Assembly (NCBI GenBank): GCA_965207735.1
Contig: OZ242296.1
Location: forward strand, 4,096,001 to 4,160,000
Origin: Candidatus Versatilivorator sp.
Lineage (GTDB): Bacteria; Acidobacteriota; Terriglobia; Versatilivoradales; Versatilivoraceae
DNA: 64,000 bases
Direction of reading: 5' to 3'
Position 1 is the stretch's first letter, and each line of letters opens with the position of its first letter. The notes below the pieces were generated by a model. That model was not told the DNA's origin. It searched no databases and saw nothing but the letters and a program-made list of their open reading frames with translations. Position numbers and translations under genes: made by a program. Positions 54,434 to 64,000 of this stretch are shown in pieces.

Positions 54434-55204
54434 TCAGTCGGAATCCTCGCCCCTCAGGCGCCTTTTGCCGAAGATCCAGGCTACCAGGATGCCTACCAGG
54501 TACAGCAAGAGCATGGGCGCGGCGAATACCATCAAGGTTGGGATGTCCGGCGTTGGCGTGATGACGGCTGCTGTAATGAAAATTATGAGGACGGCATAGC
54601 GGAGATTCCTCAACAGGAATCGGGCATTGGTGACGCCCATGATGGAGAGGAAGAAGATGACGATCGGAATTTCGAAAATGATGGCGCATCCCAGAATGAC
54701 GACCAGAGCGAAGTCGAAGTAGAAGGTAGCAGTCACGATCTCCTGAAAGTTCTGGCCGAAATTGGTGAGAAAGTTCAAGGTCATGGGAAGGCCGACCGTG
54801 TAGGCAAAGATCCCCCCCAGTGCAAAGAGAAGGCTGGAGGAAAGCAGGAAGGGTATGGCGTATCGCTTTTCCCGGGAATAGAGGCCGGGGGCAATGAACA
54901 ACCAGACCTGCCACAGAACTACCGGAGAGGCCAGAAAGATCCCGGCGTAGAAAGAAGCCTTCATGTAGATCATGAAGGGCTCGGTGGGGCTCAGATAGGT
55001 GAGCTTGCTGTCCCCCAGGTGCTGGGTAATCGGAACCGACAGGAACTCGAAGATTCTCTCGTGAAAGATCCAGCAGGCAACGAAACTGATGCCTACCGCA
55101 GCGATGGCGACGATGATACGCCGGCGCAACTCGTCCAGATGATCCAGAAAGGACATCTTGCCGGACGTCGCAAGCTCGTTGTCGTCCCTTGGGTCAGTGT
55201 CCAT
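54434..55204 (-). CDS. tatC: Twin-arginine translocase subunit TatC
   Basis: MSFLDHLDELRRR, WLFIAPGLY..EK, FEIP and AAVITPTPD. Confidence 0.96.
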   Translation of the reverse strand: MDTDPRDDNELATSGKMSFLDHLDELRRRIIVAIAAVGISFVACWIFHERIFEFLSVPITQHLGDSKLTYLSPTEPFMIYMKASFYAGIFLASPVVLWQVWLFIAPGLYSREKRYAIPFLLSSSLLFALGGIFAYTVGLPMTLNFLTNFGQNFQEIVTATFYFDFALVVILGCAIIFEIPIVIFFLSIMGVTNARFLLRNLRYAVLIIFITAAVITPTPDIPTLMVFAAPMLLLYLVGILVAWIFGKRRLRGEDSD

Positions 55205-55649
55205 CCGGCTTGGTTTCAGGCTTGGGCTCCGAGCTCGAGCCGGATGAGGAGGCTATCGCAGCCTCCGGCTCCCGGCCGGCGTCGCCTTCAGAAGGATGGG
55301 AGGGTGCTTCAGGCTTCTCTTCGGCGGAGACAGCTTCCGCCGCAACATCACCGCCTTCCGCTTCGGAAGAGGTCGGTGCCGCCGCTTCCTCCCCGGTATC
55401 GACGGCCGGTGCAGGGTCGGCAGTTGCAGCTTCCGCCGGCTTTTCCAGCTTGGGCGGGGGAGGGGGAGGTTCATATTCCGCCGCGCGAACCTCTTCCTCC
55501 AGGGTATTTCTGAGTTCGTTGGAGGCGCGTCGGAACTCGGAGAGTCCCCGGCCGAGAGATTTCCCCAACTCAGGCAGCTTGCGTGGCCCGAATACCAGCA
55601 ACGCCACCACAAAAATGATGATCAACTCGGGTACGCCGATGGGTCCCAT
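55194..55649 (-). CDS. tatA: Twin-arginine translocase TatA/TatB-family subunit
   Basis: IGVPELIIIFVVALLVFGPRKLPELGKSLG.GL.EFR, followed by a long acidic tail. Confidence 0.88.
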   Translation of the reverse strand: MGPIGVPELIIIFVVALLVFGPRKLPELGKSLGRGLSEFRRASNELRNTLEEEVRAAEYEPPPPPPKLEKPAEAATADPAPAVDTGEEAAAPTSSEAEGGDVAAEAVSAEEKPEAPSHPSEGDAGREPEAAIASSSGSSSEPKPETKPDGH

Positions 55650-55773
55650 CCGTTCCTCCAAACGTACCGAATCATAATTGGAGCAGGATTACAAGTCAAG
55701 GCAGGGCTTCCCGTTTGAGGCTTTACTTCGATTGGAGGCCGGTGCTATATTTGGGCCAAGTTAAGGGGTGGGT

Positions 55774-61543: not shown

Positions 61544-61589
61544 GACCGTTGACCTCCCGGCTGGTGCCCCCGACATAGGAATACGTGTC

Positions 61590-61770
61590 TGAAACAAACG
61601 AAAAAAGACAAAAGAAAAAGAGGAAAAAGATTTATCCACGAAGAGGCACGAAGGACCACGAAGGGCCACTAAGGCGCTGAGGTTAACCGCGACGGGGTAC
61701 CAAGGTCGCGAAAGGATAATCGATTTCCGATTGTTTCACTCTCGTATGATCCGCCCGGCAGGGCGGGGAC
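61590..61770 (+). repeat. Module of the composite intergenic repeat family
   Basis: TTATCCACGAAG..CACGAAGG.CCACTAAGGCG.TGAGGTTAACCGCG is shared with about 22450-22570 and, inverted, with about 12320-12430. The 3' part is the inverse of 11480-11518. Confidence 0.8.
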
Positions 61771-62040
61771 GGAACTTGTCTCAAACGCCGGGGACTATAC
61801 CACAGACACGGGGCAACCGGGGATCAGAGGCACTAGCCCGCAGTTGTCCATGCCGCCGGTCTATCAAGACAAGCACAGCAGCTGGGCATCCCCGCTCTAC
61901 CGGCAAATTGCGAGCTTTGATTTTTCCGGGAGGTTGGGCTATATTCTGGCTCTCTCGAAAGTACCAGTTGACCGGCGGGCATGGTTCGCCGGATCGCTAT
62001 GGAGATGATGTTCAAACCCATCCTCAAGGAGGATTCCTCT

Positions 62041-62415
62041 ATGGATCGAAGAAAATTCACTCAGGTCATGGGAGCCGCCGTGGCCGGCATGGTGGCGGGT
62101 TCCAAAGCGGTCAGTCAAACGGATTCGCTGTTGTTGGCCGATGAAGACAAGAAGTCCAAGCACGTCTGCAAGGGCCGTAACCAGTGCAAGGGCCAGGGCG
62201 GTTGCGCCAGCGGCGACAACGGCTGCGCCGGCAAGAATTCCTGCAAGGGCAAGGGCGGCTGCGCCACCGTGGCCAAGCACGCCTGCAAGGGTCAGAACGA
62301 GTGCAAGGGCCAGGGCGGCTGCGGCAGCGGCGACAACGGCTGCGCCGGCAAGAATTCCTGCAAGGGCAAGGGCGGCTGCGCCGTTCCCGTTCACGGGACC
62401 GAAAAGAAGAAATAG
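62041..62415 (+). CDS. Cys-rich RiPP precursor for an MNIO enzyme (bufferin BufA2-like), with a twin-arginine leader and two 39-aa core repeats
   Basis: MDRRKF plus a hydrophobic leader; two copies of KHxCKGxNxCKGQGGCxSGDNGCAGKNSCKGKGGC; AGGAGG RBS; lies directly upstream of DUF692. Confidence 0.82.
   Translation: MDRRKFTQVMGAAVAGMVAGSKAVSQTDSLLLADEDKKSKHVCKGRNQCKGQGGCASGDNGCAGKNSCKGKGGCATVAKHACKGQNECKGQGGCGSGDNGCAGKNSCKGKGGCAVPVHGTEKKK
62158..62385 (+). repeat. 117-bp tandem duplication encoding the precursor core
   Basis: Units start at 62158 and 62275 and are near-identical. Confidence 0.9.
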
Positions 62416-62534
62416 CCTGACTCTCCAGGACCGGCCGGTCTCCCGACGTTTCCGACCGCGGGGTGCAGCCCACGACTCCGCGGCCGGGAAGCGGGATGGC
62501 GGCCGAGTCCGTGCGTCGGACCAGGAGGTCCCTT

Positions 62535-63395
62535 ATGGGCAGGAACCGATGGAATTTGCCCGACCTGGGGTTCGGAATCGGTCTCCGCACCGTCCACTAC
62601 AGCTACATTCTCGCCAACCACCCTCCCATCGACTGGTTCGAAATCCTGTCGGAGAACTACATGGATACGGGAGGACGGCCGCTTTACGTGCTGGACCAGG
62701 TGGCGGAACGCTACCCGGTCGTGCTCCACGGCGTTTCCATGTCGGTGGGAAGCACCGACCCCTTGAACCTGGATTATCTGAAGAAACTGAAGGCCTTGGC
62801 CGACCGTACCAGGGCCCACTGGGTCTCCGACCACCTCTGCTGGACCGGCGTGAGCGGCATCAACGTCCATGACCTGCTGCCGATGCCCTACACCGACGAA
62901 TCCCTGCGCTACACCATCGAACGGGTGAAGGCGGTTTCCGAGATCCTGGAGCGCCCCCTGGTGCTGGAGAATCCCTCGACCTACCTGGAGTTCGGGACCT
63001 CGACCTGGAGCGAAGTCGACTTTCTGTCCACCCTGGCCCAGGAGGCCGACTGCGGGATACTTCTGGACGTGAACAACGTCTACGTCAGCTGCTTCAACCA
63101 CGGCCTGGACCCGGACGCCTTCATCGACCGCGTCCCGGCCGACCGTGTGGTTCAGTATCACCTGGCCGGACACACCCACAAGGGAACCCACATTCTGGAC
63201 ACCCACAGCGATTACGTCATCGACGAAGTCTGGTCCCTCTATCGACGCTCCTGCCGGAGAACCGGCGGGGTGGCAACCCTGCTGGAGTGGGACGAGAACA
63301 TTCCCAGCTTCGAGGTGGTTCACGCCGAAGCCTTGAAAGCCCGCCGGCACCGCGGCCTTCCCGAGCCGGACCACAAGAGAGCCTATGGCACCTGA
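62535..63395 (+). CDS. DUF692 family multinuclear non-heme iron-dependent oxidative enzyme (MNIO; BufB/HvfB-like)
   Basis: GIGLR..HY, WFEILSENY, LHGVSMSVG, SDHLCW, HDLLP.P, LEN, LLDVNNVYV, HLAGH, DTH and LLEWD; AGGAGG RBS. Confidence 0.93.
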   Translation: MGRNRWNLPDLGFGIGLRTVHYSYILANHPPIDWFEILSENYMDTGGRPLYVLDQVAERYPVVLHGVSMSVGSTDPLNLDYLKKLKALADRTRAHWVSDHLCWTGVSGINVHDLLPMPYTDESLRYTIERVKAVSEILERPLVLENPSTYLEFGTSTWSEVDFLSTLAQEADCGILLDVNNVYVSCFNHGLDPDAFIDRVPADRVVQYHLAGHTHKGTHILDTHSDYVIDEVWSLYRRSCRRTGGVATLLEWDENIPSFEVVHAEALKARRHRGLPEPDHKRAYGT

Positions 63396-64000
63396 TCTGG
63401 GCGACACCCAGCAATGGATGCAGGCGGTCATTCTGCATCCGGGCTCCGATCGCGAGGCGGTGGCTTCCCCGAAAGCCCGCAAACTAGTGCCGACAAGCCG
63501 GTTTCCACGCCTGATAAGACCATCCCGTACGCTGGATTCCTTCGACCGAATCGGAATCTACCGCGGCATGTACCTGGCCCGCTTGCAGGAAGCCCTGGAG
63601 GCCGACTTTCCCGGGCTGCTGCATTTTCTGGGTCGGAAGCGCTTCTCCGAGCTGGTCGGGGGCTATGTCGACCGCTATCCCTCCCGGAGCTATACCTTGA
63701 ACCGCCTGGGAGATTATCTGCCCGAATACATCCGGAGCATCCCCGGAATAGTGCGGCAGGACTTCCTCTACGAAATGGCTCGCTTCGAGCTGTTGATGAG
63801 CCGACTGTTCGACGCTGAGGAATCACCGGTCCTCACCCCCGATGCCATCGCCGCGGTACCCCCGGAAAGCTGGGAGACAGCCCGTCTCAAACCCATCGCG
63901 GCTCTTTCGGTGGAGGCGCTTCGCTACCCGGTGGGAGCCTATCTGGAGGCGGTGCGCCAGGGCACGACCTGCCCCAGCACGCGGCGCAAAGACCACTGGG
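63385..64000 (+). CDS. DUF2063 family MNIO partner protein (BufC/HvfC-like), 3'-truncated by the window edge
   Basis: Not in the ORF track. Open frame MAPDLGDTQQWMQAVIL...RIGIYRGMYLARLQEALEADFP...YPSRSYTLNRLG.YLPEY...EMARFE; overlaps the DUF692 stop codon. Confidence 0.85.
   Translation, partial: MAPDLGDTQQWMQAVILHPGSDREAVASPKARKLVPTSRFPRLIRPSRTLDSFDRIGIYRGMYLARLQEALEADFPGLLHFLGRKRFSELVGGYVDRYPSRSYTLNRLGDYLPEYIRSIPGIVRQDFLYEMARFELLMSRLFDAEESPVLTPDAIAAVPPESWETARLKPIAALSVEALRYPVGAYLEAVRQGTTCPSTRRKDHW

Follow-up and report, generated by a model that had tools for sequence, protein, structure and literature searches.

What do the three genes that close a 64,000-nucleotide stretch of the Candidatus Versatilivorator sp. 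genome (contig OZ242296.1, positions 4,096,001 to 4,160,000, the whole stretch being termed the window herein) produce, and how does their product leave the cytoplasm? The genes follow one another on the + strand at the window end as a Cys-rich precursor (bufA), an MNIO enzyme of the DUF692 family (bufB) and a DUF2063 partner (bufC), and this three-gene order, proposed in an original prediction made from the letters alone, is confirmed by the ORFs (open reading frames) and by matches to PF05114 and PF09836. Judged from profile matches, these genes form a bufABC operon and belong to bufferin-2 (Buf2), a type described before. With moderate confidence, we propose that it yields a modified, copper-binding peptide with 12 Cys, likely unfolded, that is exported probably through twin-arginine translocation (Tat) and buffers periplasmic copper. 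The RRxF leader and the core of half-repeats are each undescribed in the main texts of the bufferin papers, whereas the presence of 12 Cys is already published.

First, the family assignment is supported by each of the three genes. bufA (62041..62415, + strand) encodes a precursor of 124 aa, with an ATG at 62041, an AAGGAGG ribosome site at 62026-62032 and a stop at 62415. The BufA2 profile NF050166 gave this precursor 63.4 bits against a cut-off of 60, a score summed over three stretches, the best of which reached 35.6 bits, and covering only profile positions 6-62 of 79; canonical Buf2 precursors score 62-90 bits over nearly the whole model. bufB (62535..63395, + strand) encodes 286 aa, scores 356.5 bits on the BufB maturase model NF050167 against a cut-off of 310, matches PF05114 with an E value of 1e-107, and aligns with PDB 3BWW (E 2e-53) with the His, Glu and Asp motifs kept; the bufB query brought up no other MNIO in the genome. 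bufC (63385..64000 within the window, + strand, continuing to G000:C1:4160224) overlaps bufB by 11 nt and matches PF09836 (DUF2063) with 67.7 bits against a cut-off of 27.2. The original prediction had noticed that this partner was missed by the ORF list, and indeed it is a complete ORF of 279 aa (L001 7385-8224), overlooked only for the reason that the window stops 224 nt short of its end. A BufA2 profile score above the cut-off, 12 Cys and the bufA-bufB-bufC order, three marks of the Buf2 type, are thus all found here, which bears out the earlier proposal of a BufA2-like, MNIO-dependent RiPP (a peptide made on the ribosome and modified after translation) with a multiplied core. In an NCBIfam scan, the HvfB, MbnB, ChrH and ApyH models all placed the cluster below their cut-offs. 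Moreover, 6957 of the 7997 scored candidates were homologues and the majority of 80 related loci show the same gene order, so the cluster is not a chance assembly. The nearest named relatives are Acidobacteriota metagenome-assembled genomes (MAGs) titled Candidatus Versatilivorator or Terriglobia, at 90-99% identity. Metatranscriptome contigs from related strains cover all three genes in four of four runs, and one contig links bufA to bufB in three of the four, a data set that has no silent control and so does not show transcription.

The published knowledge of this family sets the limits of what is new. Buf2, named BUF_6/12Cys (bioRxiv 2024.03.18.585515; PNAS version PMC11626156), protects Caulobacter vibrioides against copper and carries there a modification of -18 Da, a disulfide probably linking Cys I to Cys VI (bioRxiv 2024.03.18.585515). 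According to PMC12452194, Buf2 precursors have six Cys in 90% of cases and 12 in the rest, lipoprotein signals occur in 16%, and the clusters are without sigma or NrsF genes. The claim of novelty for 12 Cys was thus lost, and Table S3 of that paper lists a precursor of the same architecture, MCI0516215.1 (P0025; from a Woeseiaceae MAG, L019), under Buf2 and the MNIO of that precursor in the Buf2-associated column; the table is a list of representatives, in which two of six accessions tried were present. MCI0516215.1 shares with the window operon the RRxF leader, the 12-Cys spacing and the operon, at 67% identity, and appears there by accession only, uncharacterised and with its leader type uncommented. 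By sequence likeness, this indirectly places the window architecture inside the published Buf2 family.

Second, the core of the precursor follows a design of its own. The 12 Cys are spaced 5-5-6-5-5-7-5-5-6-5-5, and behind a D-R-R-K-F start, a Gly/Ala-rich stretch, a Lys and a linker come core unit 1 (His41-Lys79, 62161..62277, + strand), which holds six Cys in two C-x5-C-x5-C half-repeats, and core unit 2 (His80-His118, 62278..62394, + strand), which holds the other six and is identical to unit 1 at 31 of 39 positions, just as predicted for the leader and the two 39-aa cores. Tandem Repeats Finder resolved the core DNA into a period of 117 nt (1.9 copies, 93% matches) and a sub-period of 57 nt (3.4 copies); in other words, the core consists of four near-equal half-repeats. 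Two core designs, with the first five Cys spaced alike (5-5-6-5), occur in the family. In the canonical Buf2 core, C-K-G-x-G-aromatic is followed by Cys VI 12 residues on (102/120, doubled in 18), whereas the window-type core ends in C-K-G-K-G-G-C (125 of 172, with the exact double spacing), with Cys VI only five residues after Cys V, in a K-G-G-C context like that of Cys III. The strand-helix-strand segment that carries the canonical Cys VI is absent from the window-type core. The canonical double-domain precursors (spaced 5-5-6-5-12-23-5-5-6-5-12, a pattern that 16 of 120 hits show exactly and 2 more nearly) also reach 12 Cys by internal duplication, but there the whole domain is doubled behind a non-RR leader, and in the window it is the shorter C-x5-C unit. 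The double-domain example modelled in PMC12452194 is WP_077285100. For C. vibrioides BufA2, the published Cys24/Cys50 numbering fits neither spacing type. The 5-5-6-5-5 half-repeat core is not described in the main texts of the bufferin papers.

The same design bears on folding, where Buf2 bufferins are characterised by a small fold of sheet and helix that a Cys I-Cys VI disulfide closes. AlphaFold gave no confident model of the window precursor (121 sequences), with a pLDDT (predicted local distance difference test) below 50 for residues 26-124, and the canonical Buf2 control reached a mean of 63, with strands at 36-40, 68-71 and 82-86 and a helix at 73-77 at about 60-85; the last three of these elements are the part without a counterpart in the window design. 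Thiooxazoles and bound metal lie outside what AlphaFold can represent, and disorder is not proven by the failure of a model. Because the model fails from residue 26 and because F, W, Y, L, I and M are all absent from the mature part (91 aa), the prediction suggests that the peptide may be an unfolded chelator of the repeat type, with a logic nearer to that of the all-modified EGKCG peptides. Among solved structures the precursor profile had no genuine match, the ESM Atlas gave matches to unnamed clusters only, and a Pfam DUF7640 match fell below its cut-off.

Third, the precursor begins with a Tat-like signal peptide of 33 aa (62139 being its last nucleotide, 62041..62139, + strand), with RRKF at codons 3-6, a Gly/Ala-rich h-region and Lys22 in the c-region; R3, R4 and F6 are at least 90% conserved, and from the homologues cleavage is expected after Ala33 (or Ser25). 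Since ranking on the whole protein favours the leader type of the window precursor itself, homologues were also ranked on the core alone. An RRx[FLVIM] leader was found in 113 of 120 homologues by the first ranking and in 79 of 120 by the second, the other 41 carrying the same core behind a non-RR leader, and RRxF was found in 0/120 of the canonical Buf2 control. Among the 79 RR leaders, F stands at +3 in 74, K at +5 in 56, and 17 are Tat-lipoprotein (lipobox) versions. The h-region, when anchored on the motif common to both leader types, is less hydrophobic in RR than in non-RR leaders (1.54 vs 1.82) and a basic c-region is more frequent (45/62 vs 7/20), two comparisons between related sequences, for which p values are overstated. 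In addition, a position profile built from 122 RR leaders and run on the 24,793 RR-containing candidate N-termini of the genome ranked the precursor first, followed by typical RRxF[L/M] signals, judged by eye to be of Tat type. The RR pair stands after a polar residue and before a hydrophobic residue at +3 (D-R-R-K-F), as in Tat signals, the RR leader is kept in Acidobacteriota, Planctomycetota and Gammaproteobacteria alike, and the genome encodes tatC and three TatA/B-family genes. From these signal features, routing of the precursor by Tat appears rather probable. The term Tat is absent from the main texts of the bufferin paper (bioRxiv 2024.03.18.585515 / PMC11626156) and of PMC12452194, and a literature search that lacked most subscription papers turned up no publication in which MNIO products are tied to Tat. 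As a separate observation, the genome holds dozens of typical twin-arginine N-termini, many on proteins of 380-590 aa and in paralogous sets.

Several observations weigh against the proposed account. The Tat consensus is Z-R-R-x-phi-phi (PMC13673990), and its second hydrophobic residue is missing here, with Thr at +4; I, L, V, M or F occupies +4 in 0/113 and 1/79 of the family leaders, whereas this position is hydrophobic in 39 of 41 of the top-ranked signals of the genome itself. The models TIGR01409 and PF10518 do not match the precursor, and among 121 homologues only 3 match TIGR01409 and 13 match TIGR02811 (E up to 0.1). Hydrophobicity compared without anchoring gave a null result (2.05 vs 1.97, p 0.08). 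The Buf2 list that contains MCI0516215.1 is described as selected for SignalP 6 Sec signals (PMC12452194), and most Tat signals can direct Sec export of a Sec-compatible passenger (PMC13673990). On the side of the chemistry, the authors of PMC12452194 state that the Buf2 modification is not identified chemically, no member of the subtype is characterised in the main texts of the published bufferin work consulted, and none of the neighbouring genes kept from lineage to lineage has to do with copper. The twin-arginine leader claimed at the outset thus stands in most of its Tat marks and in its wide conservation, and falls short at +4; because of that missing residue, it is termed Tat-like and is not filed as a Tat substrate.

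These points lend themselves to another explanation, namely that the same bufferin is exported by Sec, with RRxF kept for binding to BufC or with a Tat-like signal used by Sec since the passenger is unfolded. The polar +4 position throughout, the A-[VAM]-[AST]-G-[LMIV] motif of the h-region common to RR (29/79) and non-RR (22/39) leaders under a strict pattern, and the non-RR leaders that precede this core in 41/120 homologues (L060 and L063, which sit between RR loci on the MNIO tree, are two of them) all agree with it; moreover, the partner protein has been proposed to mask the signal peptide (PMC12452194), and a Sec signal that contains an RR pair is not rerouted by it (PMC13673990). However, an in-register F is preceded by RR in 65 of 68 cases and KK, KR or RK never take its place there; F at +3, K at +5, the basic c-region and the lipobox versions match Tat usage; and the non-RR relatives keep BufC, which argues that RRxF is not needed to bind it. 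We consider Sec export the strongest competitor, and nevertheless rather unlikely.

If Tat is used, the cargo may be unfolded, and Tat use need not mean folded or metal-loaded cargo, because Tat tolerates small unfolded hydrophilic substrates (PMC13673990) and because the same core also occurs behind non-RR leaders. The 111 precursors in the fetched loci, among which 11 labels were corrected by eye, divide into RR with a double core (66), non-RR with a double core (26), non-RR with a single core (8), RR with a single core (1) and canonical non-RR (10), and the link between core number and RR leader is obligatory in neither direction. An MNIO tree of 94 rows, drawn without 3 duplicates and without the 14 precursors for which no MNIO was recovered, confines RR leaders to the clade that has the doubled C-x5-C core, where they are mixed with non-RR groups; L060 and L063, with non-RR leaders, are nested among RR loci. 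Repeated switching of the leader type was considered and is not claimed, since the tree needs 5 changes and a single RR clade is not rejected (p-AU 0.44). Three further observations concern these relatives. The one precursor with an RR leader and a single six-Cys unit (L036 5001-5255) is a close relative nested among double-unit relatives on the tree, and likely lost one core unit, with assembly collapse as the alternative, though several 85-aa cluster members exist. L054 and L070 carry a second subtype precursor after bufC. In L063 and L081, a set of genes resembling a canonical bufABC lies next to the subtype operon.

The original prediction suggested that the peptide may leave the cell folded or metal-loaded. 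On this reading, the modified peptide would fold or bind metal in the cytoplasm and Tat would export the loaded cargo, which would then be a metal-efflux shuttle. Tat normally carries folded proteins (PMC13673990), the restriction of RR leaders to the double-core clade agrees with such a role, and a fold induced by metal is compatible with the failed AlphaFold model. Nevertheless, the contrast with the partly folded canonical control, the lack of hydrophobic core residues, and the occurrence of both the 26 double-core loci without RR and the single-core locus with RR speak against it, and the copper of Buf1 has been argued to bind in the periplasm after export (bioRxiv 2024.03.18.585515). This claim is not supported, and a loaded cargo now seems improbable.

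Herein, we return to the proposed periplasmic copper buffer to describe how it would work. BufB, an iron enzyme, would together with BufC oxidise most or all of the 12 Cys to copper-binding 5-thiooxazoles in the cytoplasm. The leader would then be released, the likely unfolded peptide would be exported, likely by Tat, signal peptidase would cleave after Ala33 to leave a product of about 91 aa, whose unmodified mass would be 8925.05 Da, and the exported peptide would bind copper in the periplasm and so buffer its excess. The thiooxazole chemistry, the signal peptidase cleavage and the copper role are carried over from the characterised bufferins and are very likely to apply. Because Tat is strictly post-translational, the leader might hold the precursor in the cytoplasm until its processing is done, and would thus set the time of export instead of carrying folded cargo. 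This role fits a question left open in PMC12452194, that is, how MNIO precursors bearing a signal escape export before their modification. More tentatively, and with considerable doubt, the operon may represent a widespread undescribed Buf2 subtype, concealed within the published list of the family, in which all four half-repeats are converted (up to 12 thiooxazoles, with no structural disulfide) and the peptide is exported by Tat, the signal serving either as the timer or, in the most far-reaching case, in the export of cytoplasmic metal.

Among the copper-binding heterocycles cited at the outset, one needs correction, since the modification of oxazolin has been reassigned to 5-thiooxazole (PMC13097082; 10.64898/2026.06.05.730506), a product established, according to these sources and bioRxiv 2024.03.18.585515, for Buf1 and EGKCG peptides. 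Closest is bufferin 2 of C. vibrioides (bufA2B2C2, CCNA_03001-02999), with the same order of precursor, MNIO and DUF2063 genes. The Buf2 family and the window operon share the absence of DoxX and of sigma/NrsF genes, 6 or 12 Cys, the spacing of the first five Cys, scores above the cut-offs of NF050166 and NF050167, and a signal peptide in place of a dedicated exporter; they differ in the leader (twin-arginine vs plain Sec signal), in the gap between Cys V and VI (5 vs 12 in canonical Buf2) and in the strand-helix-strand end. Oxazolin (HvfABC) and fontiphorin (EGKCG, Lys-Cys group) likewise pair a related MNIO with a DUF2063 partner, and in them many Cys in short repeats are all modified and bind copper; unlike these, the window precursor has no EGKCG repeats, and scores stay below the cut-offs of the models for that group, with 253.4 bits against a cut-off of 360 on the HvfB model NF003818 and 40.4 against 142 on NF050145. 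In methanobactin (MbnABC), an MNIO also oxidises Cys to a copper ligand, but the window MNIO reaches only 55.4 bits on the MbnB model TIGR04159 (cut-off 325), and the oxazolone-thioamide chemistry, the short precursor without a signal peptide and the role in copper uptake are unlike the window operon. Asp253-Glu254 of BufB stand at the place of Asp249-Phe250 of FonB, in which Asp249 is catalytic, so that Phe250 is replaced by Glu. An acidic residue at this position is reported for the Cys-Lys MNIOs in PMC13097082, which also places Buf2 in the Cys-Lys group of "captophorins". Among 88 MNIOs of the subtype, the position holds Glu in 34, Ala in 33, Asp in 16 and another or unread residue in 5, and it is thus not fixed.

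That the product instead binds another soft metal (Ag, Hg, Cd or Zn) or buffers redox through its thiols, most or all of its Cys being left unmodified, would agree with the lack of copper genes or a sigma/anti-sigma pair nearby, with the roles beyond copper suggested for some bufferins (PMC12452194) and with a Cys VI context unlike canonical Buf2, but is very improbable given a BufB above the bufferin-maturase cut-off with its catalytic motifs kept and given that the closely related MNIOs tested so far all put 5-thiooxazoles on copper-binding peptides (PMC13097082; 10.64898/2026.06.05.730506).

In the surroundings of the operon, tatC (54434-55204) and a tatA-family gene (55194-55661) lie on the opposite strand, 6.4-7.6 kb upstream of bufA, so that the predicted distance of about 7 kb was right, and a C-terminal peptidase, a gene which we take from its sequence to be gatB, a YgfZ/GcvT-like gene, a thioesterase and mtnA lie between. 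As evidence for Tat export, this proximity is rejected as genus-level synteny, because it is kept in 6 of 7 close kin (7-17 kb from bufB, with 956 kb in the seventh) but in only 1 of 5 other measurable genomes (11 kb in G305, with 144 kb to 1.85 Mb in the other 4); of the 28 other genomes, 22 have bufB and tat on different contigs and 1 has no bufB match at the cut-off. No tatA or tatC was found within 5 kb in the 80 related loci, and tatC is present in 35 of 35 genomes, whatever the leader. The single distant case (L078, G305:C1:2660700-2673300) is a planctomycete with an RR leader and tatC 11 kb from bufB, the sole one in the 5 measurable non-kin genomes. The TatA-family protein beside tatC has 155 aa and a long acidic Pro/Ala-rich tail, and two shorter TatA/B-family genes lie elsewhere in the genome.

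Within the operon, the bufA-bufB spacer (62416..62534, + strand) contains a long predicted hairpin of -68.2 kcal/mol (z -3.2, equalled by 1 of 200 shuffles), present as a single copy in the genome and without an Rfam match, which may act as a transcript stabiliser or attenuator. A weak sigma-70-like promoter match upstream of bufA (61917..61945, + strand, 9/12 positions) was not above chance (1 found vs 0.4 expected from shuffles). Further upstream, an interspersed repeat of about 200 bp (61586-61790) is overlapped by as many as some 285 BLAST matches across the genome, the best copies being 86-91% identical, with no Rfam match and with deep RNA-contig cover summed over copies; it looks like a MITE- (miniature inverted-repeat transposable element) or REP- (repetitive extragenic palindromic) type element. 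After bufC, where DoxX or ECF genes had been suggested to lie, no DoxX, ECF or NrsF gene was found, and a short ORF, a repeat and then a ferrochelatase on the opposite strand were found instead; no flanking gene is common across lineages in the loci clustered. The short ORF, of 69 aa with a His/Glu patch, begins 81 nt 3' of bufC on the + strand (L001 8306-8515, G000:C1:4160306-4160515) and is present in 11 of 11 close-kin loci and in none of the other loci examined; it has a variable 3' end, no Pfam match and, in L010, no start codon at that place, and is possibly a genus-specific fourth gene. The second repeat family, between bufC and ferrochelatase (G000:C1 ~4160590-4160860, L001 8590-8860), has internal inverted repeats, and at most some 197 matches across the genome overlap there.

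Thus, the basic chemistry and the copper role of this operon would not be new. If true, Tat export would correct the description of the Buf2 family as "Sec-exported". Moreover, near-identical cores are preceded here by a twin-arginine leader, there by a plain Sec-type or a lipoprotein one, and so form a natural test in which recognition, timing and route of export of these peptides could be separated.

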